Shown: in pieces, positions 1,211 to 24,175 of the stretch
How the letters are laid out: every line of letters starts with the position of its first letter
Numbering within the stretch: the stretch's first letter is position 1
Assembly (NCBI GenBank): GCA_964586965.1
Contig: CAZPJU010000001.1
Location: 1 to 40,176 of the forward strand
Direction of reading: 5' to 3'
Source of the DNA: an uncultured Lachnospiraceae bacterium
GTDB lineage: Bacteria > Bacillota > Clostridia > Oscillospirales > CAG-272
Length of the DNA: 40,176 bases
Notes under the pieces: generated by a model
Databases searched by the model: none
What the model was told of the DNA's origin: nothing
The model's input: the letters and a program-made list of their open reading frames with translations, nothing else
Translations under genes and position numbers: made by a program

Positions 1211-1211
1211 A

Positions 1212-1793
1212 GTGAAACTGTCGTATACCGATTTACCGAGCGGATATCGCGAATTACTCGCTGTTGATCTGCAAAAAAACAAAAAGCTTGCGATACTGAT
1301 AAACGTTTCCGCTTTTGCTGTTGCGCTTGCGATGTTTGTTGTTGCGGCGTTTTTTGTCCCGATTGGGACGTTTTTCGATATGTCGGAGGGATTCGGTGCG
1401 TACCTTGCTCGTGTCGGAGCTCTCGCGGTGGGGCTTATCGTATATATCGTGCTTCATGAACTTGTCCACGGAGTAACGATGCGTATTTGCGGAACGAAAA
1501 AGATAAAGTACGGATTTACCGGTCTTTATGCTTTTGCCGGAAGCAATGATTATTACTCGAAGAAAGCGTATATTCTGATAGCACTTGCGCCGGTTGTGCT
1601 TTGGGGTGCCGTACTCGGAGCGCTGACTTTGATTTTGCCGCAAAGTTGGTTTTGGGTTGCGTATATTATTCAGATTTCAAACGTTTCGGGCGCGGCGGGG
1701 GACTTTTATGTGACATTTCGTTTTATGTCGCTGCCAAACGATATTCTCGTTAAGGATTACGGCGTGGGAATGACGGTTTATTCCGCTGAATAA
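1212..1793 (+). CDS. DUF3267-like putative zincin membrane metallopeptidase
   Basis: The protein is multi-TM with an HELVHG (HExxH) motif just after TM2, as in DUF3267 proteins. It uses a GTG start 8 nt downstream of AAAGGA. Confidence 0.65.
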   Translation: MKLSYTDLPSGYRELLAVDLQKNKKLAILINVSAFAVALAMFVVAAFFVPIGTFFDMSEGFGAYLARVGALAVGLIVYIVLHELVHGVTMRICGTKKIKYGFTGLYAFAGSNDYYSKKAYILIALAPVVLWGAVLGALTLILPQSWFWVAYIIQISNVSGAAGDFYVTFRFMSLPNDILVKDYGVGMTVYSAE

Positions 1794-3330: not shown

Positions 3331-3498
3331 TTTTTGAACCTCTTTTCGGTCAAGGTGTTTTTGCTTTATGTTTACGCTTTTGAACTGATAAATATGACAA
3401 ACGAACATTTTTTCGCGAAATTTGCGAAAAACGCTTTCAATTTACGACGGATGTGATACAATAATGTTGCAGAAATGAAAATTTGAACGGAGAACGTT

Positions 3499-4345: not shown

Positions 4346-4550
4346 ATTGTTATGAAAATTTGACGTAGTTTGCCGTGGTGTCGGAAGCGGCGGCGAGGTC
4401 AACGATTAAACGGTGTTTCGCCCACCGATAAATAAGGCGCTTTTTTAGACGCCGAAAGGCGAAAACAGCGATTGTCCCCCATGGCTTACGGCTTTCGTGA
4501 GCTGAAGCCGCAAGTCGGGATGACGCCAAACCAAGGTAGGAGGAAGTTCT

Positions 4551-7500
4551 ATGAACAGAACAAAGCTTCAAAAGCTCATGGCTCTTTTTCTTGCTGTTCT
4601 GACCATTGCGGGTACATTTGCCGTGCCTGTTATGGCTGCGGATGCGGGAACTGAGACAGACAAAAACGAAGGCACGTCCTCTCGTAAGGATCTTGCGGAG
4701 ATCAGTGCGGCGCTCAATGCGATTTCGTATCTCGAATACTGCAACGAGCATAAAGACGCAGTGCGTGCTAACAAAGAAGTCACCATTGACGCTTCGGTTT
4801 ATAATAAGGAAATGACCGATGCGGCAGTTGAGGTGTACAAGGATTATGAAGGAATGGAAGGCGATTCGCTCTTTATTCCCGACTCCGGTAAAGTTACATG
4901 GGATGTTAAAGTCCCCGAAACCGGAAAATATGCGATCGAGGTCGTTTATTATCCTATCAGTAATAAAGCGAACTCTATCGAGCGTATGTTCTACATCAAC
5001 GACGAAGTTCCCTTCGCTGAAGCAAGATATCTTGCTATGACGAAGATCTGGAGAAACGACTACAAGAAGGACGAAAACGGCAATGACGTTTTCCTCAGCG
5101 ATATCAACGGTAACGATATCCGTCCCGAAACGTACGAAGATCCCGATTGGGTAACGACAACCTTTATCGACAGTAACGGATATTATTCCGATCCTTTCGA
5201 GTTCTTCTTTGAAGAAGGCGAAAACACTATCGCACTCGAAGCTGTAAGAGAACCCGTTGTGATTAAGTCTATCAGACTTTATCCTTACGAAGATCTTCCC
5301 ACCTATGAAGAAGTAAAGGCACAGTATGCCGCAAACGGCTACAAGGAAGCAACGGCGGATCCCATAAAGGTCAATGCCGAATTCACAAGCGCTACTTCTC
5401 ATCAGACGATCTACCCTATTTACGACAGAACCTCATCTATCACTGATCCTCAGGACCCGGTGCTCGTTAAGTTGAACACGATCGGTTCCGATAAGTGGCA
5501 GCAGGTCGGTCAGTGGATCGAATACGATATCGAAGTCCCAGCGGACGGTCTTTATACGATCGCGGCAAGATTCAAACAGTCTGAGCTTTCCGGTCTGTAT
5601 GTTTCGAGACGTCTCTATATCGACGGAGAAATTCCGTTTGAAGAATGTAACTATTTGCAGTTTGCATATTCGAACTCTTGGCAGTCCAAGAGATTCGGTG
5701 AAAACGAAGAAGGCGACGAGCCTTATCAGTTCTACCTTACAAAGGGTAAGCACACAATCCGACTTGAAGTAACTCTCGGTGAACTCGGAACGATCGTTCG
5801 CGACGTAAGCGATACACTTGAGGTTATCAACGATGCTTATCTTTCTATATTAAAGCTCACAGGAACAAACCCCGACTCTTACCGTGACTACGGTTTCTCG
5901 CGTGTAATCCCCGGCACGATCAAGAATCTTGTTCTTGAGTCCAGAAATCTTGAAACCATCATCAATCAGCTCGAATCAATGAACGGCGTTGCCGGCGAAA
6001 ACACCGCGACACTTTCCGAAGTTCAGAGACTTGTCGAAAAGATGGCTTCCGATGAGGACGAAATCGCTCCGAACCTTACAACGCTTAAATCTAACGTCGG
6101 TACTCTCGGTACTTGGGTAAATACAGTTACCAAGCAGCCGCTTGAGATCGACTACCTCTCCGTACAGCCCATTTCCGCAGAACTTCCTAAGGCTGAGGCT
6201 AATTTCTTCCAGGCAATCTGGTTTGAAATTCGTTCCTTCATCGGAAGCTTCTACACGGACTATAACTCGCTCGGCTCCACTGTTGAAGTTGACGAAACAA
6301 ACTCCGTTGACGTTTGGGTCGTAACCGGACGTGACCAGGCGCAGATCATCCGTAACCTTATAGATAATAACTTCACTCCTCAGAGCGGCGTAGCTGTTAA
6401 CCTCAAGCTCGTTGCCGGCGGAACACTTCTTCCTTCCGTCCTCGCAGGTGTTGGTCCCGACGTTTCGCTCTTTACCGGCGACGGTGACGTTATTAACTAC
6501 GCGATCCGCGGTGCGCTTCAGGGACTTAATGATAAACTCTGCAAGAACTGCAAGTCTAAGGGTAAGGAAACACTTAAATATGTTGACGGCGGCGATTATC
6601 ACTGCGACGAATGCGGCGCAGACGGCGCTGACAACTGGGAAATCTTCTTCGATACCTTCGAGGAGGTAACTTCGAGATTCTCCGCAGCGGCTACTATCCC
6701 GCTTACGCTTTACGGCGAAACATTCGCGATCCCCGAAACTCAGACATTCCCGATGCTCTTCTACCGCAAGGACATCCTCGCTGACCTCGGACTCGAAGTT
6801 CCCAAGACATGGGACGACGTACTTGCGATGATTCCCGTGCTTCAGTACAATAACATGGAAATCGGTCTCACCGCCGACTACCTCACATACCTCTACCAGA
6901 TGGGCGGCGATCTTTACGCCGACAACGGTATGAGAGTTAACCTCGATAATAACCTCTCCCTTGAGGCTTTCGAGATGATGTGTAATATGTTCACGATGTA
7001 TTCGCTGCCGTACTCATACGACTTCGCGAACCGCTTCAGAACAGGTGAAATTCCGATAGCTATTTCAAACTATACGTCTTATAACCAGCTCGTTGTATTC
7101 GCAACTGAAATCGCAGGTCTCTGGGAATTCACAACAATCCCCGGTATGCTCCAGGAAGACGGTTCGATCAATAATACGGCAGTTTCCGGCGTTGCCGGCG
7201 TCGTTATCATGGAAGGCAGTAAGCATAAGGAAAATGCTTGGGACTTCATTGATTGGTATACCGACTCCGAATTCCAGGCTGCGTACAGTAACGAACTCGT
7301 TGCAGTCCTCGGTGAAGCAGGTATGAACCCGACGGCTAACATCGAAGCCCTTGAAGAACTTTCATGGACATCCGACGAATATAAAGAACTCCGTGCACAG
7401 TTCGATGCTCTTACAGCAGTGCCGAACTACCCCGGTTCTTATATTATCAGCCGTTACACAGACTTCGCATTCAAGGATGCGTACAACAATAAAGCTAACC

Positions 7501-7856
7501 CGACAGAATCACTTCTCGGTTACATTAATATAATAAACAAGGAATTCTCCCGTAAGCGCGAAGAATTTAACCTCGAAACGCTTAACCTCGGTGAAAACCT
7601 TGCCGAAAAGAGAATCCGTCAGGCAAGAGAACTTATCGACGACTTCAAGGACGCCGATAAGGAAAAATATGCAAAGCAGATACTTGAGCTTAATTCCGCG
7701 ATAGATACCGCGCTCGTCGGTACTTCCGGTGTTGCCGAGTTTGATGCTCTCGCAGCAGTAGCAACCTCACTCAGAAATACGGATGCGGCGCTCTTCGGAG
7801 ACGTTGCAGACTTCATTGATGACGCTGTTGCCGCTCTCAACTCTTACCTCTATTGA
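4551..7856 (+). CDS. Giant secreted ABC solute-binding protein (CUT1-type SBP domain) fused to two N-terminal CBM-like beta-sandwich repeats
   Basis: A strong RBS (GGTAGGAGGAAG) precedes the start. The signal peptide has an AxA site (VMA/AD) and no lipobox Cys. There are two paralogous repeats (GKYAIEVVYYP...YINDEVPF and GLYTIAARFK...YIDGEIPF). The C-terminal half has SBP family-1-like sequence (FAIPETQTFPMLFYRKDILADLGLEVPKTWDD). Confidence 0.8.
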   Translation: MNRTKLQKLMALFLAVLTIAGTFAVPVMAADAGTETDKNEGTSSRKDLAEISAALNAISYLEYCNEHKDAVRANKEVTIDASVYNKEMTDAAVEVYKDYEGMEGDSLFIPDSGKVTWDVKVPETGKYAIEVVYYPISNKANSIERMFYINDEVPFAEARYLAMTKIWRNDYKKDENGNDVFLSDINGNDIRPETYEDPDWVTTTFIDSNGYYSDPFEFFFEEGENTIALEAVREPVVIKSIRLYPYEDLPTYEEVKAQYAANGYKEATADPIKVNAEFTSATSHQTIYPIYDRTSSITDPQDPVLVKLNTIGSDKWQQVGQWIEYDIEVPADGLYTIAARFKQSELSGLYVSRRLYIDGEIPFEECNYLQFAYSNSWQSKRFGENEEGDEPYQFYLTKGKHTIRLEVTLGELGTIVRDVSDTLEVINDAYLSILKLTGTNPDSYRDYGFSRVIPGTIKNLVLESRNLETIINQLESMNGVAGENTATLSEVQRLVEKMASDEDEIAPNLTTLKSNVGTLGTWVNTVTKQPLEIDYLSVQPISAELPKAEANFFQAIWFEIRSFIGSFYTDYNSLGSTVEVDETNSVDVWVVTGRDQAQIIRNLIDNNFTPQSGVAVNLKLVAGGTLLPSVLAGVGPDVSLFTGDGDVINYAIRGALQGLNDKLCKNCKSKGKETLKYVDGGDYHCDECGADGADNWEIFFDTFEEVTSRFSAAATIPLTLYGETFAIPETQTFPMLFYRKDILADLGLEVPKTWDDVLAMIPVLQYNNMEIGLTADYLTYLYQMGGDLYADNGMRVNLDNNLSLEAFEMMCNMFTMYSLPYSYDFANRFRTGEIPIAISNYTSYNQLVVFATEIAGLWEFTTIPGMLQEDGSINNTAVSGVAGVVIMEGSKHKENAWDFIDWYTDSEFQAAYSNELVAVLGEAGMNPTANIEALEELSWTSDEYKELRAQFDALTAVPNYPGSYIISRYTDFAFKDAYNNKANPTESLLGYINIINKEFSRKREEFNLETLNLGENLAEKRIRQARELIDDFKDADKEKYAKQILELNSAIDTALVGTSGVAEFDALAAVATSLRNTDAALFGDVADFIDDAVAALNSYLY

Positions 7857-7908: not shown

Positions 7909-8871
7909 ATGTCAAATAAAAATGAAGCTGCTGCCGTTCAGGAACAGCGCGCGGTATCGCGTAAGGATATGACAAGAGCTCAGTGGACATGGCACGAGAT
8001 GAAGAATAACAAAACGGCGTACCTCATGGTTGCTCCGTTTATGATATTGTTCTTCGTGTTCACGGTTATTCCGGTTGTGCTCTCCATCTTCCTGAGCTTG
8101 ACATCGTTTAATATGCTTCAGATGCCGAAGTTCATTTTCCTTGATAACTATATCCGACTTTTCCTTGACGACGATATTTTTATCACGGCTATAAAGAACA
8201 CTCTCATCTTTGCAGTGGTAACAGGACCTACGTCCTACTTCCTCTCTCTGTTCATCGCGTGGTTCATTAACGAGCTTCCGCCTAAGATCAGAGCTCTCGT
8301 AACCCTCGTATTCTACGCTCCCTCCATCGGTGGTAACGTATATCTTATTTGGGGTACGCTTTTCTCAAGCGACGCATACGGTTGGGTAAACGGTTGGCTC
8401 CTCAACTGGGGTATAATCGACCAGCCCGTGCTTTGGTTCTACGATGCGACATACTGTATGCCTCTGTGTATAGTCGTCGCACTGTGGACTTCACTCGGTA
8501 CATCTTTCCTTTCGTTCATTGCAGGTCTTCAGGGCGTCGATAAGTCTCTTTACGAGGCGGGCGCTGTTGACGGTATCAAAAACCGTTGGCAGGAACTTTG
8601 GTATGTAACCCTTCCTTCAATGAAACCGCAGCTTATGTTCGGTGCGGTCATGGCTATTACAGGTTCGTTCGGCTTCGGCGGTATCGTTACCGCCCTCGCC
8701 GGCTTCCCTTCGGTAGATTACTGCTGCTGGACAATCACTCATCACCTCGATGACTACGGCGGAACACGTTGGGAAACAGGTTATGCTTCCGCAATCGCTG
8801 TTTTGCTTTTCGCAATGATGGTCGGAGCTAATATGCTCGTCCAGAAACTTCTCTCAAAGGTAGGACAATAA
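7909..8871 (+). CDS. Carbohydrate ABC transporter permease (MalF/LplB-like), pair 1
   Basis: It has six predicted TM segments and an EAA loop (LYEAGAVDGIKNRWQELWYVTLPSMKP). An AAGGAG RBS precedes the start. Confidence 0.9.
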   Translation: MSNKNEAAAVQEQRAVSRKDMTRAQWTWHEMKNNKTAYLMVAPFMILFFVFTVIPVVLSIFLSLTSFNMLQMPKFIFLDNYIRLFLDDDIFITAIKNTLIFAVVTGPTSYFLSLFIAWFINELPPKIRALVTLVFYAPSIGGNVYLIWGTLFSSDAYGWVNGWLLNWGIIDQPVLWFYDATYCMPLCIVVALWTSLGTSFLSFIAGLQGVDKSLYEAGAVDGIKNRWQELWYVTLPSMKPQLMFGAVMAITGSFGFGGIVTALAGFPSVDYCCWTITHHLDDYGGTRWETGYASAIAVLLFAMMVGANMLVQKLLSKVGQ

Positions 8872-8872
8872 A

Positions 8873-9748
8873 ATGGCAAGAAAATTAAGAACAAGAAACC
8901 ATAAAGTTGTCCTCAACCGTTCGGTGGGAGGCGACCTCGGAATCACAGTATTCCTTACAATTATGGGCGTGTTTATGTTTCTTCCCATGCTCTATGTCAT
9001 CCTTCAGGCGCTCAAGCCGCTTGACGAGCTTTGGATGTTCCCGCCCCGCTTCTATGTTATCTCTCCTACGCTCAAGAACTTCACAGACCTCTTCTCTTTG
9101 ATGTCTGACTCTTGGGTTCCGTTCTCGAGATACATATTCAACACAGTTTTCATTTCGATCGTAGGTACATTCGGTAACCTTCTGTTCGCTTCGCTCGCAG
9201 CTTACTCGCTCGCAAAGTTGAAGTACCCCGGACGTGACTTCCTCTTTAACCTCGTTGTTAAATCGCTTATGTTTACGTCCACCGTTACCGGTATCGCAAC
9301 CTTTATCACGATGTCACTCCTCGGATGGGTTGATACTTACCTTGCGGTTATCGTCCCCGCGTTCGCAACAACGCTCGGTCTTTACCTTATGAAGCAGTTC
9401 ATGGAGACAAACGTATCCGATGCGGTTCTCGAAAGTGCACGTCTTGACGGTGCATCCGAGTTCTACGCATTTTGGGTAATCGCAATGCCGATGGTTAAGC
9501 CCGCTTGGCTTACGCTGATCATTTACTCTTTCCAGGGTCTCTGGAATTCGGGTTCTTCCATCTACATTTACTCCGAACAGCTTAAAACTCTTAACTATGC
9601 AATTTCGCAGATCACCGCCGGCGGTATCGCCCGTGCAGGTGCGGCTGCGGCTTCTACCGTCATCATGATGATGGTACCGATTATCGTTTTCGTTATTTCC
9701 CAGAGTAACATCATCGAAACGATGGGCTCGAGCGGAATGAAGGACTAA
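8873..9748 (+). CDS. Carbohydrate ABC transporter permease (MalG/LplC-like), pair 1
   Basis: It has an EAA loop (LESARLDGASEFYAFWVIAMPMVKP). The start lies 1 nt after the upstream stop. Confidence 0.9.
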   Translation: MARKLRTRNHKVVLNRSVGGDLGITVFLTIMGVFMFLPMLYVILQALKPLDELWMFPPRFYVISPTLKNFTDLFSLMSDSWVPFSRYIFNTVFISIVGTFGNLLFASLAAYSLAKLKYPGRDFLFNLVVKSLMFTSTVTGIATFITMSLLGWVDTYLAVIVPAFATTLGLYLMKQFMETNVSDAVLESARLDGASEFYAFWVIAMPMVKPAWLTLIIYSFQGLWNSGSSIYIYSEQLKTLNYAISQITAGGIARAGAAAASTVIMMMVPIIVFVISQSNIIETMGSSGMKD

Positions 9749-9763: not shown

Positions 9764-11890
9764 ATGAAAAGAAAACTTTTTTCCTTGCTTCTGATTGTGA
9801 TAACGGCGGTTATGCTTGCTACAACGGCAAGCGCGGCAGCATATACGACTTACACCTATTCCTACGAAGGATTTGCGCTTAAATCTCCCGATGCGTATGT
9901 GCCGGACAGAATCGTAGATTCCGATTATATCGGTCTTACAGTTCCGATCGACGAACCGAGAGATCTTGAAGTCGATGACGAAGGCAATGTCTATATCGTA
10001 GACGCAAAGAATCAGCGTGTCATCGTAACAGACCGTTACTACAAGCTGAAGTTCGAAATCTCCTCCTTCCTTAATGAGCACGGCGTGTGGGACAGCTTCG
10101 CAGATCCCTCCGGCGTTGCTATTACGGAAGATTACATCTACGTCTGCGACACGAACAATAACCGTATCGTTATGTTCGACCGCGACGGCAACTATGTAAA
10201 GATCGTACCGAAACCCGTTTCTGCGTATTTCGTAGAAGGCTCTCTCTATAAGCCGGTAGCGGTCGCAGTAGATAAGTACGGCAGACTTTTCGTTGTTTCT
10301 TCAACAACCTATCAGGGTATCATCGTTATGGACGATGATGCGAATTTCTCCGGATTTATCGGCGCACAGAAGGTTTCTATCGGTGTTTGGGAAAGAATTT
10401 GGCGTGAAATTCAGACGGAAGAACAGAGAGAATCATCTGAAGAATATATTTCGTCCGAATTTAATAACATCACAATTGATGACGACGGATTTATCTATGT
10501 AACAACGTCCTCCATCGACGAAGATGTACAGCAGAGCGCGATCAATTCGCGTTCCACAGACGGTGACTATGCTCCCGTTAAAAAGCTTAACTCCACCGGT
10601 TATGACGTTATGGGTCGTAACGGCTTCTGGCCTCCGTCCGGTGAAGTAAAAGTCTCCAATTCGTCCACTTCTTCTATCTCCGGCGCGTCTAAGATCATTG
10701 ACGTTGCGGTAGGTCCGGAAGGAACATGGTCTATCATCGACGAAAAGAGAAGCAAAACATATACGTACGATAAATACGGTAACCTCCTCTTTATCTTCGG
10801 TGACACAGGCGAACAGCTTGGTAATATTTATAATATCGAAGCTATCTCTTACAGCGGCGACGATATCATCCTTCTTGATAAATCGAAGGACAGTTTTACC
10901 GTTTATAAGAGAACAGCATACGGCGATCTCCTTATAGAGGCGCTCAGCCATCAGAACAACAGAATTTATGACGTTGCAGTCGATGACTGGACATCTATCC
11001 TCCAGCGTAACAGTAACTTTGATACCGCTTATATCGGTATCGGTGATGCAATGTACCGCGAAGCTGATTACGAAACCTCTATGGAGTATTACAAGTACGC
11101 GTACAACACTGAAGGTTATTCCGATTCTTTCCGCGAAGTTCGTAAAGAATGGGTCGCTAAGTGGATTTGGACTATCCCGATAATAGTTGTCGTTATTTGC
11201 GTTGCTCTTTCCAAGTTCTTCAAGTACGCGGATAAGGTAAATAAGGCAACGGCACTTAAAGTCGGTAAGAAAAGCTTTAAGGAAGAACTCCTTTACGGCT
11301 TCCATCTTATCTTCCATCCGTTTGACGGATTCTGGGACCTCAAGCATGAGCAGAGAGGTTCGGTTCGTGCGGGTATCGTTTATATAATCGTAACGATCGT
11401 CGCATTCTTCTATCAGTCCGTAGGTACAGGCTATATCTTTAACCCCACCGGAAACTTTATGAACATTTTCGCGCAGATCGCGTCCGTTGCTGTTCCGCTT
11501 ATCCTTTGGGTAGTAGCTAACTGGTGCCTTACAACGCTGTTCGACGGCGAAGGATCCTTTAAGGATATCTTTATCGCAACTACGTACAGCTTGCTCCCTC
11601 TCCCGATGCTCGTAATCCCGTCCGTAATTTTCTCCAATATCCTTGCTGAAAACGAAGGACAGCTTATTACGCTTCTCGTAGGCATCGCATGGGCATGGGC
11701 AGGTATGCTTATATTCTTCGGAATGATGGTTACACATGACTATTCCCTTCTCAAAAATGTCACAACGACTCTCGGTACTATCGTGGCAATGGCGTTTATC
11801 ATCTTCGTCGCAGTCCTCTTTACGAGCCTTGTTGCAAGAATGGTAAGCTTCATATCAAGTATCATAGTCGAGTTGACATATCGTACATAA
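9764..11890 (+). CDS. Secreted NHL-repeat beta-propeller fused to a C-terminal Yip1-type polytopic membrane domain
   Basis: There is a signal peptide ending ASAAAY. NHL-like blades include YIVDAKNQRVIVTD, IYVCDTNNNRIVMFDRDG and LFVVSSTTYQGIIVMD. From about aa 466 there are five or more TM helices with Yip1-like spacing. Confidence 0.7.
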   Translation: MKRKLFSLLLIVITAVMLATTASAAAYTTYTYSYEGFALKSPDAYVPDRIVDSDYIGLTVPIDEPRDLEVDDEGNVYIVDAKNQRVIVTDRYYKLKFEISSFLNEHGVWDSFADPSGVAITEDYIYVCDTNNNRIVMFDRDGNYVKIVPKPVSAYFVEGSLYKPVAVAVDKYGRLFVVSSTTYQGIIVMDDDANFSGFIGAQKVSIGVWERIWREIQTEEQRESSEEYISSEFNNITIDDDGFIYVTTSSIDEDVQQSAINSRSTDGDYAPVKKLNSTGYDVMGRNGFWPPSGEVKVSNSSTSSISGASKIIDVAVGPEGTWSIIDEKRSKTYTYDKYGNLLFIFGDTGEQLGNIYNIEAISYSGDDIILLDKSKDSFTVYKRTAYGDLLIEALSHQNNRIYDVAVDDWTSILQRNSNFDTAYIGIGDAMYREADYETSMEYYKYAYNTEGYSDSFREVRKEWVAKWIWTIPIIVVVICVALSKFFKYADKVNKATALKVGKKSFKEELLYGFHLIFHPFDGFWDLKHEQRGSVRAGIVYIIVTIVAFFYQSVGTGYIFNPTGNFMNIFAQIASVAVPLILWVVANWCLTTLFDGEGSFKDIFIATTYSLLPLPMLVIPSVIFSNILAENEGQLITLLVGIAWAWAGMLIFFGMMVTHDYSLLKNVTTTLGTIVAMAFIIFVAVLFTSLVARMVSFISSIIVELTYRT

Positions 11891-11913: not shown

Positions 11914-14900
11914 ATGAGAAAATCTATTAGATTAATATCAGCGCTCTTGACCGTTCTTATGGTTGTTACTTCCGTAGGCATAGGTTCGTTGCTTACGGCA
12001 AGCGCTGCAACCCCGGCGTATGAATATCTTACGACGGGAATGGAATCGCAGCTTGCAAAGCTCGAAACGATGACTCTTATGAAGTCTCAGGACGGCTATA
12101 ACCTCTACTGCGATACCTATACCGGTGAAGTTGCGTTCCAGAAGATCGCAACCGGTCAGATTCTTTTCTCGAACCCCTATGATTCGGGTTCCTCTACCGC
12201 CGCTAACGCAGATACTATCAAGGCTAAGCTCCTTTCTCAGCTGTTTGTTGAGTATGAGGACAGCGACGGTACAGTAAAAGAAATGTATAGCTATACAGAA
12301 GCATCCGAAAGAGATCAGATCATCGTAAAAAATATCAAAAACGGTATCCGTGTTGAATATACGATGGGTCGTCAGGAAGCAAGACGTCTCGTACCGAGAA
12401 TGATCCAGAAGGAACGTCTTGAAACCCTTATTCTCGATAAGATCGATAACGAATATTCTCATGACAGACTTGCAAACTTCTACGTTTTGATGGACCCGAA
12501 CGACGAAACCAAGTCCGAGCGTGCAATCGCGGAGATGAAGGCTAAGTACCCTATCACAAACAGAATGGCAGTTTATGTTTATGACTCTAAGTCATCTGAC
12601 TATGAGCTTAACTGGTGTGAATCCGTTATCAAGGCTTACTGTCCCGACTATACTTACGAAACTCTCGATGAAGACCATGCGTTGACAGAGTATGAAGGCA
12701 GCGATTCCGCACCGCCGCTCTTCCGTCTCGCACTTGAGTACACGATCGATTCTGAAGGACTTACCGCTCGCCTTGCAGCAAACGGTATCCGTTATGATGA
12801 CACCGCATACTCTCTGCTCAGCGTAACAGTTCTTCCTTATATGGGCGCTATCAGCTCCGAAAACGAAGGTTATACCTTCATGCCCGACGGCGCAGGCGCT
12901 CTGTTCACCGCTTCCGATCTTGCAGGCATAACATGGAACCGTACCGGTCAGATGTACGGCCCCGACTATGCTTACCAGGAGATCACAGGTGAGCATCAGG
13001 AAGTTTTGACAGTTCCCGTTTGGGGCGCCGTTCAGACTCTTGATTATACCAAGACAATTACTCACGAAAATGTTGTTGAAGAAGGCTACACAACAACAGA
13101 TGAGGAAACAGGCGAAACGATTGAAGTTGATCCTGTTATCGAAACAACAACCGAAAAGGTTGACGTTCACGAAAATAAGGGATACGTTGCAATCATCACC
13201 GAAGGTGACTCTCTTGCAACCATCAAGTATGAAAACGGCGGTACGCTCCATAAGTACGCAGCTATCTACGCGTCCTTCTGCCCGCGTCCTTCCGATGAAT
13301 ACAACCTTTCCGAATCAATTTCGGCAGCTTCCAACACAACATGGCGTGTTGAATCCTCCAGAAAATACGTAGACAGCTACCGTATCAAGTACATTATGCT
13401 CGATGATGAGCAGATGGCGGAGGAAGCAAACCTTGAGGATTATTATGCACCTAATTACTTCGGTATGGCTAAGGCTTACCGTGAGTATCTTGAAGGTCAG
13501 GGTGTCCTCACAAGAATCACATCTTCCGACGTAACCGAAAACATCCCGCTTTATATCGAAGTTCTCGGTACAATGGAAACAACAGAAAAGATTCTTTCTA
13601 TTCCCGTAACAGTCGATACTCCGCTTACGACTTTCGAAAACATCCAGACGATGTATGAGGAGCTTGTTGCGGCAGGTATTGATAATGTTAACTTCAAACT
13701 CACAGGCTTTGCAAACGGCGGTCTCTCCAAGTCTACTGTTCCGTATAAGCTTAAGTGGGAAAAGGCGGTCGGCGGATCTGATGGATTTGAGGCACTCGTT
13801 GCTTACGCGGCAGACAAAAACCTCGGTATCTTCCCCGACTTCGACTTCTGCTACGCTGCTCATAATAAAGCATTTGATGGCTTTACTTACAGAAAGCACG
13901 CAGTTAAAACGATCGACGACCGTTACACATCAAAGCGTTATTATAACGCTATGACACAGTCGTATTCGAGAAACTTCGAAATCGCGATTTCCCCGTCTGT
14001 GTTTACACACTTCTATGAGAAGTTCAATGAGAACTATCAGAAGTATAATCCCACGGGAATCTCTGTTTCGACTCTCGGTACAGACCTTAACTCCGACTTC
14101 GACGAGGACGATCCTTACAACCGCGAGGACAGCAAACGCTTTACAATCGAACTTCTTGATCAGATTTCCAAGGACTATGATCAGGTAATGGTTGACGGCG
14201 GTAATGCTTATTCCTTCAAGTATATTGATCATATCGTCAATATGAACCTCAATTCCAGTGAATTCTTCAATGCTTCTTATTCCGTTCCGTTTACGGGACT
14301 CGTGCTTCATGGCTACGTTCAGGGCGCAGGTACTCCCGCTAACGAGGAAGGCGACATTGAAAACGCTATTTTGAAGTCCATCGAAACAGGTACTTACCTC
14401 TACTTCACACTTGCTTATCAGAATACTTCCGATCTTAAGGAAGATGAAAACCTCAACTCTTATTATTCGATCAGATACGATATCTGGTTTGACGATATGG
14501 TTGAATACTATACATACCTTAACGGTGTCCTCAAGGATCTCCAGACTCAGCTTATCGTTGGTCACGAGTTCCTCGCAGGCGAACGTGTACCGGATGCTGA
14601 CGAGCTTGAAGCAGACAGACTGAAGGCTGAAGAAGAAGCTGCTGCTAAGGAAGAAGCTGATCGAATCCAGCAGGAAAAGGACGAAGCTGCAGCAGCACTC
14701 GCCGCACGTAAGGAAGCGGAAGCTCTTGAAGCGGAAAAGCTTACAGCTCTTGAAGACTCCGCAAAACTTATAGATACGATCAATAAGCTCCTTGCAGAAG
14801 TTGATGCAAAGAAAGTTGCGTTTAAGGATCTCGTAGCAAGCATTCCCGAACTTGAAGCGGCTATTCCCGCTGCCGAAAAGGCTCTTGAAGATGCAAATGC

Positions 14901-15570
14901 AGCTCTTGAAACTGCTACTAAGGCTAACGATGATGCTCAGGCAGCTCTTAAAGCCGGCGATTCTTCCGATGAGGACGCTTATGCGGCTCTCAAGGAAGCG
15001 GCTTCCGAAGCAAAGTCTGCTCTTGAAGACGCAACAAAGGCTGTTGAAACTGCAACAAAGGACGTTGAAACAGCTGAAAAGGCTGTAACAACAGCTCTTG
15101 AATCCATCAGAACATATAAGACCGTTATGCATGAGCTTAAGGCTGAAATCGAAGAAACAGTCGCTCTCGCAGAGCGTAAGGTAGAGATCACCGAAGGCGC
15201 AATCGCAGAAATCGTTACGAATAAGGATAAGGTATCCGCAATCGCAGCTACCGCAATCGCTAATATCGAGCCCTTCTACGCTGATTATGACGCGGCAATC
15301 GCTCTTTATGAACTCACTCCCGTTGAGGATGAGACAAAGGACGATGAAACCGACGGCGATACTGATGCCGACCCCGATCATAAGCCCGGCGCCGATGTTG
15401 AACCCGAAGAAGCAGTTGTTTCCAAGTATGCGATAGATGACGGTTCTATCGTTCACGTAACTTATGAAAACGGTACACACTTCATCCTCAACTACAACCG
15501 TTTCTCGGTAACTGTTGAATATGAAGGCACAACCTATACTATCGAAGCATTCTCGGTAGTGAAATTTTAA
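11914..15570 (+). CDS. 1218-aa secreted protein, DUF5696-like (possible TIM-barrel glycan-active domain) with coiled-coil insertion
   Basis: There is an AGGAGG RBS and a signal peptide ending LTASAATP. The central region (IPLYIEVLGT...FKLTGFANGGL...LGIFPDFDFCYA) resembles DUF5696-type proteins as I recall them. Residues ~aa 893-1130 are A/E/K-rich heptads, followed by an acidic linker and a small beta-rich C-terminal domain. Confidence 0.55.
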   Translation: MRKSIRLISALLTVLMVVTSVGIGSLLTASAATPAYEYLTTGMESQLAKLETMTLMKSQDGYNLYCDTYTGEVAFQKIATGQILFSNPYDSGSSTAANADTIKAKLLSQLFVEYEDSDGTVKEMYSYTEASERDQIIVKNIKNGIRVEYTMGRQEARRLVPRMIQKERLETLILDKIDNEYSHDRLANFYVLMDPNDETKSERAIAEMKAKYPITNRMAVYVYDSKSSDYELNWCESVIKAYCPDYTYETLDEDHALTEYEGSDSAPPLFRLALEYTIDSEGLTARLAANGIRYDDTAYSLLSVTVLPYMGAISSENEGYTFMPDGAGALFTASDLAGITWNRTGQMYGPDYAYQEITGEHQEVLTVPVWGAVQTLDYTKTITHENVVEEGYTTTDEETGETIEVDPVIETTTEKVDVHENKGYVAIITEGDSLATIKYENGGTLHKYAAIYASFCPRPSDEYNLSESISAASNTTWRVESSRKYVDSYRIKYIMLDDEQMAEEANLEDYYAPNYFGMAKAYREYLEGQGVLTRITSSDVTENIPLYIEVLGTMETTEKILSIPVTVDTPLTTFENIQTMYEELVAAGIDNVNFKLTGFANGGLSKSTVPYKLKWEKAVGGSDGFEALVAYAADKNLGIFPDFDFCYAAHNKAFDGFTYRKHAVKTIDDRYTSKRYYNAMTQSYSRNFEIAISPSVFTHFYEKFNENYQKYNPTGISVSTLGTDLNSDFDEDDPYNREDSKRFTIELLDQISKDYDQVMVDGGNAYSFKYIDHIVNMNLNSSEFFNASYSVPFTGLVLHGYVQGAGTPANEEGDIENAILKSIETGTYLYFTLAYQNTSDLKEDENLNSYYSIRYDIWFDDMVEYYTYLNGVLKDLQTQLIVGHEFLAGERVPDADELEADRLKAEEEAAAKEEADRIQQEKDEAAAALAARKEAEALEAEKLTALEDSAKLIDTINKLLAEVDAKKVAFKDLVASIPELEAAIPAAEKALEDANAALETATKANDDAQAALKAGDSSDEDAYAALKEAASEAKSALEDATKAVETATKDVETAEKAVTTALESIRTYKTVMHELKAEIEETVALAERKVEITEGAIAEIVTNKDKVSAIAATAIANIEPFYADYDAAIALYELTPVEDETKDDETDGDTDADPDHKPGADVEPEEAVVSKYAIDDGSIVHVTYENGTHFILNYNRFSVTVEYEGTTYTIEAFSVVKF

Positions 15571-15585
15571 GAGAGGAGTTTGACA

Positions 15586-16569
15586 ATGAAAACTGAAACA
15601 AAAAAGACTAAGATCAAAGTCGAGTCGGCTCCCAAAAAGCGTAAAATAGTGTCTTTGGACAAGAAAAAGGCTCGCGCGGGTTATTGGTTCGTGCTTCCCT
15701 TTATTATCGGTTTGCTTGTAATTTACATCCCGATGATATATCAGTCCATTAACTACAGCTTCCATGAAATGAATTCCGTCAGAGGCGGCGGGTACGAACT
15801 TGTACCCGTCGGCTTCGACAACTACACCGAGGCGCTTCTCGTTGATACTTCATTCGTGCAGCAGCTTACTACGGGTATCAGACAGATCATCTTCGATATC
15901 CCCGCAATCGTAATCTTCTCGCTGTTTATGGCGATCCTCCTGAACCAGGATATGGCGGGACGCGGATTCTTCCGTGCTATCTTCTTTATCCCTGTTATCA
16001 TCAGTACAGGTCTTATGAGCGATATCGACTCTGCTAACATACTTCAGGAAAGTATGGGAAGTGCCGGTTCTCAGATTGATACAGGTACAGGACAGAGTAC
16101 CGTTTCGCAGATCGTAAATGTTATGGACGTTGAGCGACTTTTTGAAAACATGAAGGTCGGTTCCGGTCTCGTTGAGTACGTAGTCGGTCTCGTAAATGAT
16201 ATTTTCGATATCGTAAACCGTTCCGGTGTACAGATGCTTATCTTCCTTGCCGGTCTTCAGTCTATCTCACCTGCGATTTATGAGTCGTGTCAGATAGACG
16301 GTGCGACAGCATGGGAAACATTCTGGAAGATCACCTTCCCGATGATCAGCCCGATGATCCTTGTTAATGCGATATATACAGTTATTGACGCACTTACACG
16401 TTCGGATAATAACGTAATGTCGTATATCAGCACGGTATATAACGGCGCAAACGGTACAACGCTTGCTTCCGCAATGTCATGGATGTACTTCCTCTTGGTA
16501 ATGCTCCTGATCGCGGCAGTATCCGGCGTCATTTCAGCATACGTCTTCTATCAGAAGCGTGACGCATAA
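15586..16569 (+). CDS. Carbohydrate ABC transporter permease (MalF-like), pair 2
   Basis: It has an EAA loop (IYESCQIDGATAWETFWKITFPMISP). ATG at 15586 lies 7 nt after GAGAGGAG. The tracked TTG at 15580 is less likely. Confidence 0.9.
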   Translation: MKTETKKTKIKVESAPKKRKIVSLDKKKARAGYWFVLPFIIGLLVIYIPMIYQSINYSFHEMNSVRGGGYELVPVGFDNYTEALLVDTSFVQQLTTGIRQIIFDIPAIVIFSLFMAILLNQDMAGRGFFRAIFFIPVIISTGLMSDIDSANILQESMGSAGSQIDTGTGQSTVSQIVNVMDVERLFENMKVGSGLVEYVVGLVNDIFDIVNRSGVQMLIFLAGLQSISPAIYESCQIDGATAWETFWKITFPMISPMILVNAIYTVIDALTRSDNNVMSYISTVYNGANGTTLASAMSWMYFLLVMLLIAAVSGVISAYVFYQKRDA

Positions 16570-16583
16570 GGAGGTGCACATAA

Positions 16584-17645
16584 ATGGATGCTAATAACGT
16601 AAAAAGTGCTCCCGTAGTCACTAAGAATACCAAAAATAAAATTAAGGTAGACTATGAAGGAAAGGTTTCCCCTTGGGAGAGATTTAAGCTTAAAGTCTTC
16701 TCAATGTACTTCCTTAAAAATGTTGTAGTTTATATTTGCAGACTTATCCTGCTCATCGGTATTTCCTACATCATTATCTTCCCGTTTATCTCAAAACTCG
16801 CTTCGTCTATCATGTGCCGTGAGGACTTCGTTGACGCAACGGTTCTTCTGATTTCAAAGAATCCTACGCTCGACACATATAAGGCGATCATAGTCGATAA
16901 CGAATATTTCAAAGCAATGCTCAATACCGCGATTTTGTCGGGTTCGACAGCGCTGATACAGACATTCATTACCTGCTGTATCGCTTACGGTTTTGCGAAG
17001 TTTAACTTCAAGGGCAATAAAGTTTTGTTCCTTTTCGTAATCCTTACGATGATCGTTCCTCATTCAACACTCCGACTTGCAATGTTTATGAAGTTCCGTT
17101 ATTTTGATATCTTCGGAATATTTAATTTGCTCGGCGGTGGTCAGTTCGAGTGGCTTGAGATACTGCCCTTTACAGAGATCCAGCTTACAAATACATACTG
17201 GCCATTCATCATTCTCTCCCTTACGGGTCTTGCGTTTAAGAACGGACTTTACATCTTTATGCTTCGTCAGTTCTTCCGCGGCGTACCGGATGAGCTTGAA
17301 GAATCTGCGTACATCGACGGAGCGGGAACTTTCAGAACTTTCGTTCAGATCATTCTTCCGCTTTCCATCCCGATGCTCGTAACAGTATTTATGTTCGCTT
17401 TCTCATGGCAGTGGACTGATAACTACTATGTTAACGTATTCTTTACGACAACAGGACCGTACACGCTGCGCGACATCATCAAGGTTCCCTCATCTCTCGA
17501 TGTAGAGTACGCGGGACAGAATATGTATACCGCAGCTATCAGAAATACCGCAGGTATCTTGATTCTCCTTCCCCTTGTTCTTATTTACTCCTTTGCTCAG
17601 AAGTATCTTGTACAGGGTATCGAGCGTTCCGGTATCGTCGGCTAA
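16584..17645 (+). CDS. Carbohydrate ABC transporter permease (MalG-like, extended N-terminus), pair 2
   Basis: It has an EAA loop (LEESAYIDGAGTFRTFVQIILPLSIP) and an AAGGAGG RBS. Confidence 0.85.
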   Translation: MDANNVKSAPVVTKNTKNKIKVDYEGKVSPWERFKLKVFSMYFLKNVVVYICRLILLIGISYIIIFPFISKLASSIMCREDFVDATVLLISKNPTLDTYKAIIVDNEYFKAMLNTAILSGSTALIQTFITCCIAYGFAKFNFKGNKVLFLFVILTMIVPHSTLRLAMFMKFRYFDIFGIFNLLGGGQFEWLEILPFTEIQLTNTYWPFIILSLTGLAFKNGLYIFMLRQFFRGVPDELEESAYIDGAGTFRTFVQIILPLSIPMLVTVFMFAFSWQWTDNYYVNVFFTTTGPYTLRDIIKVPSSLDVEYAGQNMYTAAIRNTAGILILLPLVLIYSFAQKYLVQGIERSGIVG

Positions 17646-17671
17646 TCCGATAAAAACGATAAAACAAAAGA

Positions 17672-17705
17672 AAATCCCCGTTTGCATCAGCAAACGGGGA
17701 TTTTT
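17672..17705. terminator. Bidirectional intrinsic terminator (end of transporter operon / end of GH3 gene)
   Basis: The stem is AAATCCCCGTTTGC, loop ATCA, GCAAACGGGGATTT. It is flanked by A-rich sequence upstream and T-rich sequence downstream. Confidence 0.8.
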
Positions 17706-17726: not shown

Positions 17727-19751
17727 TCAGTTGTTGATGAGAATTTCGGTTTCAATGTTGCCGCAGAAAATGTCAAACTTGCCTTTCGCGGGAACAACAC
17801 TGCCGTCCTCAAGTACATGAGTGAACGCGTTTTTGTCGGCTTTGAGCACGACGGTCTTTTCATCTCCTGCGTGAAGCGAAACTCTTGTAAACGCGATTAA
17901 TTTTTTGATCGGTACACGGATGTCCGCTTCTTTTTCGTGACAATAGAGTAAAACAACTTCGTCACCGTCACGATTACCTGTGTTTTTTATTCTGACCGCA
18001 AAGGTTGCACCTTCTTTAGTGTTTTTGAAAGTGAAATCGGAGTATTCAAACGTCGTGTACGATAATCCGTGACCGAACGGGTACAGCGGATCTCCGCGAT
18101 AGAATTTGTACGTGCGGTTTTCCATTGAGTAATCCTCGAACGGGGGAAGTTCATCCGTTGAACGGTAGAACGTGACGGGCAAACGTGCAGACGGAACGGT
18201 CTTTCCGAAAATAATGTCGGCAAGTGCGTTTCCGCCGTCCGATCCGCCGTAGAAAAATTGAATTACGGCGTCCGATGTCTCGTCTTGGCGGCAAAGATTC
18301 ATAGCGCTGCCGCTTACGGAGACAGTGATGATAGGCTTGCCACGTGAAAGCACCGCCTCGTAAAGCGTGCGCTGAGCTTCCGGAATTTCAATGTCCTGTT
18401 TGTCGCCGGCACCTTCCTCACCCTCAAAACGGGGAGCAAGACCGAGACAAAGCACAACAACATCGGATCTGTCGGCGGCAAGCTGCGCTTCGCGGATATA
18501 GTGCTCGTCCCAAGCGTCAACGTCACCGCGGAAATATCGTGTGCCCATCGCATAATAAACTTTGCCTTTTGCGGCGCGCTTGATACCTTCAAAGATCGTT
18601 GTGTGATCGAAAGGCGTGCCGTTGTAGTTTCCGAGAAGAACTTCGGCATCGTCTGCGTTCGGACCGATAACGGCAATTTTAAGATCACGGTTGTTGTTAA
18701 GCGGCAAAATTCCGTTATTCTTCAGCAAAACAATAGATTCGCGCGCCATTTTTGCGTTCAGCTTTTTGTGCTTGGTGCAATTCACAACGTCGTAGGGAAT
18801 GCTGTCGTATTTGCAGTCGTCGGCAAACATACCGAGACGGTATCGCGCAGTAAACAGTTTTACAGCAGCTTCGGTTATGGTTTCTTCGTCGATCAAACCC
18901 GCTTCATGTGCGGCGAGAAGCGATGCATACGCAGAACCGCAATTCAAAACGCAACCGGCCTTTACGGCAAGCGCCGAGCTTTCCGCAGGTGTTTCGGTGT
19001 AGTGATGGTGAGCGTTAATGTCGTTGATCGCGCCGCAATCGGAGAGATAATATCCGTTGAAGCCGAAAGTGTTATAGAGAATGTCGATGAGAGTCGGTGA
19101 AGCACAGCAAGGCTCGCCGTTGGTTCTGTTGTATGCGCCCATAACGGCAGACGGGTCTGATTTTTCTATGCAATAACGGAACGCTTCAAGGTATGTTTCA
19201 AACATATCCTGCTTTGTTGCAACAGCGTCAAAGCCGTGACGTAAGTTTTCCGGACCGCTGTGTACCGCATAATGCTTCAAGGTAGCGTCAAGCTTGCGAT
19301 ATTTGTAATTTGGGTCTCCTTGCAATCCGCGAACAAAAGCACTGCCCATGCGACCCGTCAAATACGGATCTTCACCGTAGGTTTCGTGACCTCTGCCCCA
19401 ACGTGGATCTCTGAAAATGTTGATGTTCGGTGACCAAAACGTCAAGCCCTGATAGATCTGCGTTCCTCCGAAACGCTTGTATTCATTGTATTTTGCACGT
19501 GCCTCATCCGAGATCGCGTCCGCGACATTATAAATAAGCTTGTCGTCGAACGAAGCCGCCATTGCGATGGCTTGAGGAAATACCGTTGCGACTCCGGAGC
19601 GTGCAACTCCGTGAAGCGCTTCGTTCCACCAGTTGTATTCGGGTACGCCGAGACGCGGGATCGCAGGTGCGTCGTATTTGAGCTGAGCGCATTTTTCGGC
19701 GATAGTCATCTTGCCGACAAGCTCACGGGCAAGCTTTTCAAATTCGTTCAT
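17727..19751 (-). CDS. Glycoside hydrolase family 3 (beta-glucosidase/beta-xylosidase type), cytoplasmic
   Basis: The N-terminus KYDAPAIPRLGVPEYNWWNEALHGVAR, the KHY motif and GYYLSDCGAI (the SD nucleophile region) are GH3 hallmarks. There is no signal peptide. A GAAAGGA RBS precedes the start. Confidence 0.9.
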   Translation of the reverse strand: MNEFEKLARELVGKMTIAEKCAQLKYDAPAIPRLGVPEYNWWNEALHGVARSGVATVFPQAIAMAASFDDKLIYNVADAISDEARAKYNEYKRFGGTQIYQGLTFWSPNINIFRDPRWGRGHETYGEDPYLTGRMGSAFVRGLQGDPNYKYRKLDATLKHYAVHSGPENLRHGFDAVATKQDMFETYLEAFRYCIEKSDPSAVMGAYNRTNGEPCCASPTLIDILYNTFGFNGYYLSDCGAINDINAHHHYTETPAESSALAVKAGCVLNCGSAYASLLAAHEAGLIDEETITEAAVKLFTARYRLGMFADDCKYDSIPYDVVNCTKHKKLNAKMARESIVLLKNNGILPLNNNRDLKIAVIGPNADDAEVLLGNYNGTPFDHTTIFEGIKRAAKGKVYYAMGTRYFRGDVDAWDEHYIREAQLAADRSDVVVLCLGLAPRFEGEEGAGDKQDIEIPEAQRTLYEAVLSRGKPIITVSVSGSAMNLCRQDETSDAVIQFFYGGSDGGNALADIIFGKTVPSARLPVTFYRSTDELPPFEDYSMENRTYKFYRGDPLYPFGHGLSYTTFEYSDFTFKNTKEGATFAVRIKNTGNRDGDEVVLLYCHEKEADIRVPIKKLIAFTRVSLHAGDEKTVVLKADKNAFTHVLEDGSVVPAKGKFDIFCGNIETEILINN

Positions 19752-21385: not shown

Positions 21386-21399
21386 AAAGGGGGAATTCA

Positions 21400-24108: not shown

Positions 24109-24175
24109 GCTTATCCTTTTTGCGAAAAATCATAAAAACTATTTATTCTATCTAATCCCTGAAAGGACAAACACA

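Follow-up and report, generated by a model that had tools for sequence, protein, structure and literature searches.

The stretch of DNA analyzed here (the window) comprises 40,176 nucleotides, positions 1 to 40,176 of the forward strand of contig CAZPJU010000001.1, from the GenBank assembly GCA_964586965.1 of an uncultured Lachnospiraceae bacterium. Positions 9764-11890 of its plus strand hold an open reading frame (ORF) of 708 amino acids (aa), with an ATG start and GGAGG 9 nt upstream, that is a real gene and encodes a protein in which an NHL beta-propeller, a TPR-like stalk and a Yip1 membrane domain follow one another (NHL-TPR-Yip1). The gene is part of a plus-strand run that consists of a giant solute-binding protein (SBP), the permeases PermA and PermB, NHL-TPR-Yip1, a DUF5696 protein, and the permeases PermC and PermD, with gaps of 9-52 bp along the run; NHL-TPR-Yip1 itself is separated by 15 bp from permB and by 23 bp from the DUF5696 gene. 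An initial annotation of this locus had placed the gene between two permease pairs, and Pfam agrees, recognizing BPD_transp_1 pairs on both sides, an SBP upstream and DUF5696 downstream. Comparison of homologous loci showed NHL-TPR-Yip1 to be an obligate component, of fixed architecture, of a Bacillota cassette with a predicted role in glycan utilization.

The protein starts with a type I signal peptide (aa 1-24, 9764..9835), recognized from hydropathy and motif by MKRK, a hydrophobic core and a cleavage site between ASA and AA, in which A24 is the sole position invariant among orthologs in the conservation map. Residues 25-384 (9836..10915) are assigned to a six-bladed, extracellular NHL beta-propeller with a helical hairpin inserted at aa ~206-232, on the combined evidence of Pfam, a profile search of the PDB, an AlphaFold2 (AF2) model, Foldseek and the conservation map. 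The Pfam NHL match (PF01436; E 1.6e-10, 40.9 bits, cut-off 20) falls on aa 112-136, the blade YIYVCDTNNNRIVMFD. A profile built from 41 homologs matched the NHL propellers of Thin, TRIM71, Brat and the PknD sensor (1rwi) over aa 54-206, with E-values from 1e-17 to 4e-09. In the AF2 model of the 708-aa protein (predicted local distance difference test score, pLDDT, 74), an N-terminal helix corresponding to the signal peptide is followed by six four-stranded blades (aa 29-383), five helices (aa 385-467), a long transmembrane (TM) helix and the Yip1 helices. Foldseek searches with the modeled ectodomain returned the NHL domains of TRIM71, TRIM2, TRIM3, Thin and Brat (E 1e-13 to 1e-10; template-modeling score 0.72-0.79). 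The cleavable signal peptide and NHL-type blades first read from the sequence are thus borne out, the peptide by hydropathy and motif and the blades by a Pfam match over the curated cut-off and a six-bladed propeller in AF2 and Foldseek. Blades 3-4 contain insertions and were modeled with low confidence. The loop at aa 270-295 is nearly invariant in the conservation map yet has low AF2 confidence, and behaves as a partner- or ligand-dependent loop would. A Pfam scan of the protein also gave a weak match to an SBBP propeller, and no match to a carbohydrate-binding family.

The propeller is followed by a TPR-like stalk of five helices (aa 385-463, 10916..11152), with one to two putative TPR repeats at aa ~398-455. 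A short TPR-like stretch, READYETSMEYYKYAYN, had been pointed out here by the initial annotation, and the family as a whole supports it: aa 398-455 of the family profile match designed and natural TPR proteins of the PDB strongly, and many homologs pass the Pfam TPR models. In the 708-aa protein alone the signal is fainter, with TPR_2 (E 0.023) and TPR_16 (E 0.04) both under their cut-offs and at most one to two repeats. Because this single-protein signal is sub-threshold, "TPR-like stalk" is the safe wording.

TM1 (aa 464-486, 11153..11221; hydropathy peak 2.39 at aa 464-482; AF2 helix 470-498) joins the ectodomain to a K/R-rich cytoplasmic linker and the N-terminal segment of the Yip1 domain (aa 487-535, 11222..11368). 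The linker holds 11 K/R in the 53 residues from aa 483, and the mean across 80 orthologs is 10.8 K+R. Segment 487-535 has the most invariant positions of any segment in the conservation map (14/49, ~29% of its length), among them the invariant HPFDGxWDLKHExRG at aa 518-532. The remainder (aa 536-708 and the stop codon, 11369..11890) is a five-TM Yip1 bundle by Pfam, hydropathy and AF2 helices. Its hydropathy peaks at aa 536-559, 566-584, 604-628, 634-652 and 673-705 were modeled by AF2 as helices, bringing the predicted total, with TM1, to six. The Pfam Yip1 match (PF04893; E 3e-16, 60.2 bits, cut-off 28.6) extends over aa 514-683 and over profile positions 2-172 of 173, and was reproduced with the isolated C-terminal fragment. 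A C-terminal block of at least five Yip1-type TM helices, proposed to begin around nt 11160, is therefore confirmed, with TM1 beginning at aa 464 (nt 11153) and a full-length Yip1 match; NHL and Yip1 both lie above their curated Pfam cut-offs.

The positive-inside rule was applied to the 80 orthologs. Predicted inside loops carry 12.7 K+R compared with 1.6 for outside loops, and the mean net charge of the ectodomain is -23. This bias, together with the signal peptide, places propeller and stalk on the extracellular side and not in the cytoplasm. In the predicted topology, the N-terminal 440 residues are outside the cell, and the Yip1 domain spans the membrane and exposes its best conserved loops to the cytoplasm. 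Conservation of the Yip1 domain is maximal in these cytoplasm-facing parts (HPFDGxWDLKHExRG; NWxxTxLxxGxG, aa 586-597; H658..K664), and the outside loops of the bundle are its least conserved segments. The hallmark of eukaryotic Yip1 proteins is interaction with Rab/Ypt GTPases in vesicle traffic, which does not apply to bacteria; membership of the protein in the family denotes domain homology only.

Long minus-strand ORFs lie within this gene (10433-11737, 434 aa) and within other plus-strand genes of the window (13930-15765, 611 aa; 4350-5402, 350 aa). They were treated as spurious, since the plus-strand genes that they overlap have strong homology support, and are probably artefacts of codon composition. 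The ORF at 4350-5402, the only one of the three scanned, had no Pfam match.

A word-indexed search returned 3869 homologs, all of ~705-720 aa and identical in domain content. An exhaustive search of 50%-identity representatives gave 22,515 proteins with E<1e-3, of which 1510 had E<1e-30, and nearly all of the best 150 matches align end to end at 30-53% identity. As judged from these alignments, NHL-TPR-Yip1 represents a large family of fixed architecture across Bacillota that comprises 1510 or more clusters (50% identity) at E<1e-30. Its members occur in uncultured gut and rumen Clostridia (rumen, rabbit, yak, human gut), in Halanaerobiaceae and Limnochordia, and in cultured Paenibacillus species (WP_249730586.1, WP_223829787.1); related cassettes come also from human-gut and bioreactor metagenomes. 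The family is catalogued under database names (YIP1 family protein, DUF1282 family protein, NHL repeat-containing protein, TPR repeat protein, YncE and, for fragments of members in some sources, gluconolactonase) and has no characterized member; the literature searched held no paper linking NHL with Yip1 in bacteria. One 576-aa relative (P0386), 54% identical over the TPR-Yip1 part, has DUF4988 at its N-terminus in place of the propeller, which reflects either a true exchange of ectodomains or a chimera created in assembly.

To place the gene in its neighborhood, we compared 79 loci from species-representative genomes, 80 metagenome loci seeded from DUF5696, and six remoter loci down to 31% identity. 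In the 79 genome loci the seven-gene order is kept wherever the contig suffices, down to 44% identity. Among the DUF5696-seeded loci, the NHL-Yip1 gene lies directly upstream in 56/56 with room for it, a further 18 show its 3' part, and none is without it. Conversely, DUF5696 lies directly 3' of the NHL-Yip1 gene in every examined locus whose contig reaches that far. Three of the remoter loci (L080, L082 and L083, 31-33% identity) retain the same seven genes, and Paenibacillus sp. J2TS4 (L166) has the full cassette with an additional 446-aa SBP. In L084, a permease, NHL-Yip1 and DUF5696 are followed by glycoside hydrolases (GH) of families GH5, GH3 and GH5. In an anaerobic-digester Bacillota metagenome-assembled genome (L077) the cassette is reduced to NHL-Yip1, DUF5696, two permeases and an SBP of 480 aa, and the Halanaerobiaceae locus L165 is permuted, with GH1, NHL-Yip1, DUF5696 and two permeases first and the giant SBP and a permease downstream. 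Since the reduced and rearranged loci L077 and L165 keep NHL-Yip1, DUF5696 and permeases contiguous, these two genes with a permease pair make up the invariant core. Co-occurrence with transporter and DUF5696 genes in other genomes, on which the first reading of the locus depended, thus held in every locus examined whose contig suffices.

The seven proteins do not vary as a single unit. Kimura distances were computed over 84 complete loci, with bootstrapping on 70 non-redundant loci, and the distance matrices formed two blocks: SBP, PermA and PermB are mutually correlated at r 0.84-0.88, and NHL-Yip1, DUF5696, PermC and PermD at r 0.90-0.95. For NHL-Yip1 the correlation is 0.95 with DUF5696, 0.93 with PermC and 0.90 with PermD, compared with 0.83 for the SBP, 0.77 for PermA and 0.74 for PermB; the bootstrap difference between the two partner groups is 0.136 (95% interval 0.083-0.181). 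By this measure the cassette divides into module 1 (giant SBP and PermA/PermB) and module 2 (NHL-TPR-Yip1, DUF5696 and PermC/PermD), where co-variation is to be read as common evolutionary history and rate, not contact. The tight partner of NHL-Yip1, in terms of distance correlation, is DUF5696 with the downstream permease pair, rather than all four permeases equally. The initial annotation had suggested a surface module coupled to the membrane components; architecture and co-occurrence speak for this, with the amendment that the tie is not equal for all four permeases. Length co-variation among the DUF5696 coiled-coil insert, the SBP extension and propeller-Yip1 gave no signal in the 13 loci that met full-length criteria. 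Taken together, domain structure and neighborhood make it highly probable that an extracellular propeller carried on a Yip1 bundle is functionally tied to the glycosidase and the importer.

An extra SBP of normal size (446-517 aa) is found near module 2 in the remote cassettes L077, L082, L083, L165 and L166, and no second SBP gene was found within 8-10 kb in the window or its clade (L001-L076, L085-L164). The second-SBP region of L165 (17009-18340) was not called as a gene and may be broken.

The module 2 partner DUF5696 (11914..15570, plus strand, 1218 aa; Pfam DUF5696 5e-136) has a type I signal peptide. In the AF2 model of the mature protein (pLDDT 81), an N-terminal domain and a beta-sandwich precede a (beta/alpha)8 barrel, and the barrel is followed by a three-helix coiled coil and then by a small C-terminal beta domain. 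The coiled coil is an insertion of ~240 aa (aa ~895-1131; AF2 helices 864-1100 in mature numbering), restricted to near relatives and with an SMC-like NCBIfam match; most members of the family are 840-1050 aa long. Foldseek matched the model to two GH129 structures (5opq, E 2e-24; 5wzn, E 4e-17; template-modeling score 0.62-0.68), followed by GH101, GH31 and GH36. The multi-domain fold is thus like that of the GH129/GH101 enzymes, namely the 3,6-anhydro-D-galactosidase ZgGH129 (5opq), the Bifidobacterium bifidum alpha-N-acetylgalactosaminidase NagBb (5wzn) and Streptococcus pneumoniae GH101. Compared with these, DUF5696 adds the N-terminal domain, the 240-aa coiled coil and the C-terminal beta domain, and its sequence similarity to them is marginal: an hmmsearch against PDB sequences reached NagBb at E 0.27, in a non-catalytic stretch, and otherwise gave spurious WD40 and coiled-coil matches. 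The barrel region contains the invariant acids D613, D697, E707, D708 and E793 (mature numbering). On the strength of the model, DUF5696 is probably a secreted glycosidase with a GH129/GH101-like fold, probably alpha-retaining, and is better described as GH129/GH101-like than as a member of GH129. No paper in the literature searched mentions DUF5696.

SBPs of Gram-positive bacteria are usually lipoproteins. In the window's clade, a lipobox-like motif occurs in at most 5/66 SBPs and in 0/49 DUF5696 proteins, which have type I signal peptides instead; another means of membrane retention is therefore expected for both proteins in a monoderm cell.

The SBP of module 1 (4551..7856, plus strand, 1101 aa) matches Pfam SBP_bac_1 (4.6e-18) and SBP_bac_8, has a type I signal peptide and no lipobox, and is ~2.5 times the normal size. 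Its N-terminal ~590 aa have no family assignment, a faint Golvesin_C match being the sole family hint, and are followed by a CUT1 sugar-SBP domain (aa ~620-915) and a helical C-terminal extension; its matches among PDB sequences are maltose/oligosaccharide SBPs. The N-terminal region is kept in the Halanaerobiaceae protein SBP863 at 35% identity. A fusion of two SBPs was considered and rejected, as hhalign and blastp comparisons of the N-terminal half with the C-terminal half and with the remote small SBPs matched only a 20-residue overlap.

Module 1 also contains PermA (7909..8871, plus strand; MalF/UgpA-like; Pfam BPD_transp_1, NCBIfam UgpA/PotB-like; EAA-type loop YEAGAVDG) and PermB (8873..9748, plus strand; MalG/UgpE-like; BPD_transp_1 3.9e-08, NCBIfam UgpE/MalG-like; EAA loop ESARLDGA). 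The permeases of module 2 are PermC (15580..16569, plus strand; MalF-like; BPD_transp_1 6e-08 in the C-terminal part only; EAA loop YESCQIDGA) and PermD (16584..17645, plus strand, 353 aa; MalG-like; BPD_transp_1 2e-17, NCBIfam MalG-like; EAA loop ESAYIDGA). Since EAA loops are present in all four, they constitute two ordinary MalF/MalG-type pairs. In PermC the loop between TM3 and TM4 is enlarged to ~70 aa (aa ~148-215, by hydropathy) and Pfam recognizes only the C-terminal third of the protein; the PermC equivalents of L080 and L082 had no Pfam match. The enlarged loop lies at the position of the P2 loop of Escherichia coli MalF, which serves in SBP docking. No ATP-binding cassette (ABC) ATPase gene lies in the 40-kb window. 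CUT1 systems commonly share one MsmK-type ATPase encoded elsewhere, and such sharing has been stated for the CUT1 systems of Caldicellulosiruptor bescii (PMC8579813). With four BPD_transp_1 permeases bearing EAA loops, an SBP_bac_1/SBP_bac_8 SBP and no ATPase gene in the window, the surrounding system has the predicted makeup of a CUT1 ABC sugar importer.

Downstream of the cassette, between the convergent permD and GH3 genes, a 15-bp GC-rich palindrome flanked by A/T runs (17671..17704; 15 pairs, 7 GC, T-run) is the best terminator-like site in the region by consensus match, and resembles an intrinsic terminator that acts in both directions at the end of the operon. The GH3 glycosidase (17727..19751, minus strand) has Pfam GH3 N and C domains and an Fn3-like domain and no signal peptide, and its best NCBIfam match is the xylan 1,4-beta-xylosidase Xyl3A (761 bits, under the cut-off of 1250). 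It is likely a cytoplasmic processor of imported oligosaccharides, and as a neighbor it is kept only in the closest relatives (L001 and L053 only). Relatives ~90% identical (85-95%) were present in two metatranscriptomes, where their contigs cover all seven genes and one spans the DUF5696-PermC junction. As contigs of related organisms that may contain DNA and give no operon boundaries, they lend weak support to transcription across the cassette.

The initial annotation held that bacterial Yip1-domain proteins have essentially no assigned function. This has to be qualified by a partial precedent, Bacillus subtilis YknW, a Yip1-family fourth component of the YknXYZ ABC system that affects its assembly or oligomeric state and transports nothing itself (PMC4338810). 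Like NHL-TPR-Yip1, YknW is a polytopic Yip1-family membrane protein encoded within an ABC-transporter operon. In contrast to the 708-aa protein, YknW as described is small, with four TM helices and no ectodomain (PMC4338810); NHL-TPR-Yip1 has in addition a signal peptide, a propeller of 360 aa, a TPR-like stalk and one more TM helix. The partners differ as well: those of YknW are a membrane-fusion protein and an exporter of the MacB type, with a part in peptide-toxin resistance, and those here are a CUT1 sugar importer and a glycosidase. A known counterpart for the exposed half of the protein is Mycobacterium tuberculosis PknD (1rwi; E 3.7e-09 with the family profile), which likewise holds a six-bladed NHL propeller outside the membrane on a TM anchor. 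In PknD one TM helix leads to a cytoplasmic Ser/Thr kinase, whereas here there is a Yip1 bundle and no enzymatic output domain.

The cassette as a whole resembles part of the xylan degradation locus of C. bescii (xloEFG-X-GH129-axoFGE-xynF..., Athe_0174-0185, XynR/AraR regulons), in which 'X' is listed without function (PMC8579813). There, the X and GH129 genes lie between two CUT1 transporters predicted for xylan/arabinoxylan oligosaccharides, and all are up-regulated on xylan and Avicel (PMC8579813). Read in order, the window and Athe_0174-0181 both give an SBP, two permeases, an NHL protein, a GH129-like enzyme and two further permeases. At its end the C. bescii operon has a second SBP, AxoE, and it runs on into genes for xylanases, whereas the window's clade has no nearby second SBP. 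Athe_0177 is apparently the counterpart of NHL-TPR-Yip1. A homolog search seeded from the L077 protein reached Paenibacillus, Halanaerobiaceae and Limnochordia and did not reach Caldicellulosiruptor, and neither Athe_0177/0178 nor Csac_2415/2416 is named in the main text of any paper in the literature searched. The cassette has been seen previously only as an unnamed 'X' in the C. bescii regulon table. In encoding a surface glycosidase, binding proteins and a transporter together, it is also like the Sus-like utilisomes of Bacteroidota and the polysaccharide-utilization loci of Gram-positive bacteria. It differs from Sus-like utilisomes in having no outer membrane, SusC/SusD or TonB, with import by CUT1 ABC permeases. 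To our knowledge, the organizing component proposed below, a propeller-Yip1 protein, has no counterpart among described glycan-utilization systems.

We propose that NHL-TPR-Yip1 serves module 2 as an accessory subunit without catalytic activity. The ectodomain would be a docking platform at the membrane surface that keeps the large secreted glycosidase and the oligosaccharides it releases, and possibly the non-lipidated SBP as well, beside the translocator. The Yip1 bundle would be a lateral partner of the permeases, in a manner resembling the association of YknW with YknXYZ, which YknW modulates, and the invariant cytoplasmic loops would touch the cytoplasmic face of the permeases or the shared MsmK-type ATPase. 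In this way the extracellular glycosidase and its products may be coupled to the PermC/PermD importer. We give this inferred mechanism a probability of about 0.45. The Xyl3A-like GH3 neighbor, the remote GH5/GH3/GH1 neighbors and the xylan induction in C. bescii point to hemicellulose-derived oligosaccharides (xylan/arabinoxylan type) as the likely substrates, not necessarily one for all lineages.

Several points weigh against this mechanism. The strongest conservation lies on the cytoplasmic Yip1 face, which an extracellular scaffold does not by itself explain and which is at least equally compatible with regulation or coupling, and the correlation of distance matrices can stem from shared inheritance or block transfer instead of contact. 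That the propeller binds a substrate or partner is something we infer; we know of no NHL propeller that binds glycans or glycoside hydrolases, and related six-bladed propellers include enzymes, to one family of which, SGL, the protein has a weak match. The equivalence with Athe_0177, including the presence of a Yip1 domain there, comes from annotation and synteny only. Finally, remote DUF5696 proteins carry lipoboxes (LCGC in L080, LVGC in L082, GAGC in L083) and the propeller-Yip1 gene is kept beside them, so that simple anchoring cannot be its universal function. A role as a pure membrane anchor for non-lipidated DUF5696 is weakened by the same three loci.

The alternatives that we weighed and the accessory-subunit proposal are not mutually exclusive. 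The propeller, with or without the stalk, could be a surface glycan receptor that binds poly- or oligosaccharides in a lectin-like manner and hands them to PermC/PermD, perhaps substituting for the missing second SBP. Its extracellular position, its acidic character and the conserved, low-confidence loop at aa 270-295 would suit such a function, as would the distribution of the extra SBP, which is present in the five remote cassettes and, as AxoE, in C. bescii, and absent nearby in the window's clade. However, the protein is unchanged in cassettes that have a second SBP, so that it is not a simple replacement, Pfam finds no carbohydrate-binding family in it, and a purely extracellular role leaves the conserved cytoplasmic Yip1 loops unexplained. 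We therefore consider a receptor unlikely.

Those loops are accounted for if the protein is a sensor or regulator, with an ectodomain that senses substrate, enzyme product or SBP occupancy and Yip1 loops that gate or assemble the transporter-ATPase complex. The conservation peak in the three cytoplasmic motifs, with the outside loops of the bundle the least conserved, would be expected of it; YknW changes the oligomeric state or assembly of its ABC partner (PMC4338810), and the extracellular sensor of PknD is itself an NHL propeller. Against this, Pfam recognizes no cytoplasmic output domain, and the regulators beside the cassette vary (AraC, GntR/LacI, ROK), with no cognate one conserved. The idea overlaps with the accessory-subunit proposal and is hard to tell apart from it by sequence; as a separate explanation we regard it as quite unlikely.

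A catalytic propeller is improbable. It would make NHL-TPR-Yip1 a membrane-tethered lactonase, lyase or esterase, of the SGL/SMP-30, Vgb or PAL type, acting on glycan decorations beside DUF5696, in line with the weak Pfam SGL match (E 8e-06), the presence of virginiamycin B lyase lower in the Foldseek ranking, and the gluconolactonase name of some fragments. The SGL match stays under the curated cut-off (26.0 bits compared with 26.3) and extends over no more than two to three blades, the top structural matches are NHL domains without catalytic function, and the invariant Asp, Arg and Gly sit in the canonical structural motif of NHL blades, with no metal-binding constellation evident from sequence. 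A general envelope protein that hitch-hikes in the operon with no link to transport is very improbable, given intergenic gaps of 9-23 bp and strict adjacency to DUF5696 and permeases in Clostridia, Bacilli, Halanaerobiales and Limnochordia, down to ~30% identity and in rearranged cassettes as well.

The accessory-subunit proposal has a bolder extension, in our estimate a long shot, in which NHL-TPR-Yip1, DUF5696 and PermC/PermD would together be one import machine coupled to an enzyme. In this 'utilisome' of a Gram-positive cell, the GH129-like glycosidase, docked at the membrane, would hand its products straight to the ABC translocator. The propeller-Yip1 protein would then organize its assembly, and the window's clade would do without a dedicated classical binding protein for that translocator. 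If true, this would be a new mode of substrate delivery for type I ABC importers and the first mechanistic role of a bacterial Yip1 domain in nutrient uptake. Relative to YknW, what is new is a putative ABC accessory subunit of the same kind with a large extracellular propeller, on a sugar importer, and locked to a new GH129-like enzyme family. The cassette is widespread in gut Clostridia, Paenibacillus, Halanaerobiales, Limnochordia and apparently Caldicellulosiruptor, and two of its seven genes have no characterized member. Should the proposed role hold, it would provide a testable function for bacterial Yip1 domains, a new accessory architecture for CUT1 sugar importers, and a new enzyme family, GH129/GH101-like and linked to the use of hemicellulose by fiber-degrading gut bacteria and biomass-degrading thermophiles. 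Genetically tractable hosts for testing the cassette exist, among them C. bescii and Paenibacillus.

Other genes recur around the cassette. A 521-aa protein encoded on the minus strand (hyp521, 1843-3408), with no match in Pfam, NCBIfam or PDB sequences, adjoins the cassette in L001-L003, L008-L010, L012, L015, L017, L025 and L053, most often immediately upstream, at times inverted or downstream; at this position L080 carries a gene of 503 aa that has no annotation. The protein is possibly a regulator, or else an eighth component with loose linkage to the cassette. A PF12831 FAD-dependent oxidoreductase is encoded just upstream of the cassette in L077 (8541-9881) and in the Paenibacillus locus L166 (790-2367, with a GHL10 protein beside it), and may be a recurring accessory enzyme. 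Positions 224-1793 (plus strand) of the window encode a 328-aa ROK-family protein, probably a sugar kinase because it is too short for an N-terminal helix-turn-helix domain, and then a DUF3267 protein, a putative zincin membrane peptidase. Several related loci likewise have ROK genes close to the cassette, in one orientation or the other.

Further downstream, positions 20777-28149 (plus strand) hold a sortase-dependent pilus locus with an S26 signal peptidase (20777-21385) and two sortases. Its surface proteins are a 902-aa LPXTG protein with DUF7601 and PA14-like parts, a backbone pilin (GramPos_pilinBB, SpaA, LPXTG) and a Cna_B/pilinD1 minor pilin, and the presence of this locus confirms a monoderm Gram-positive host.

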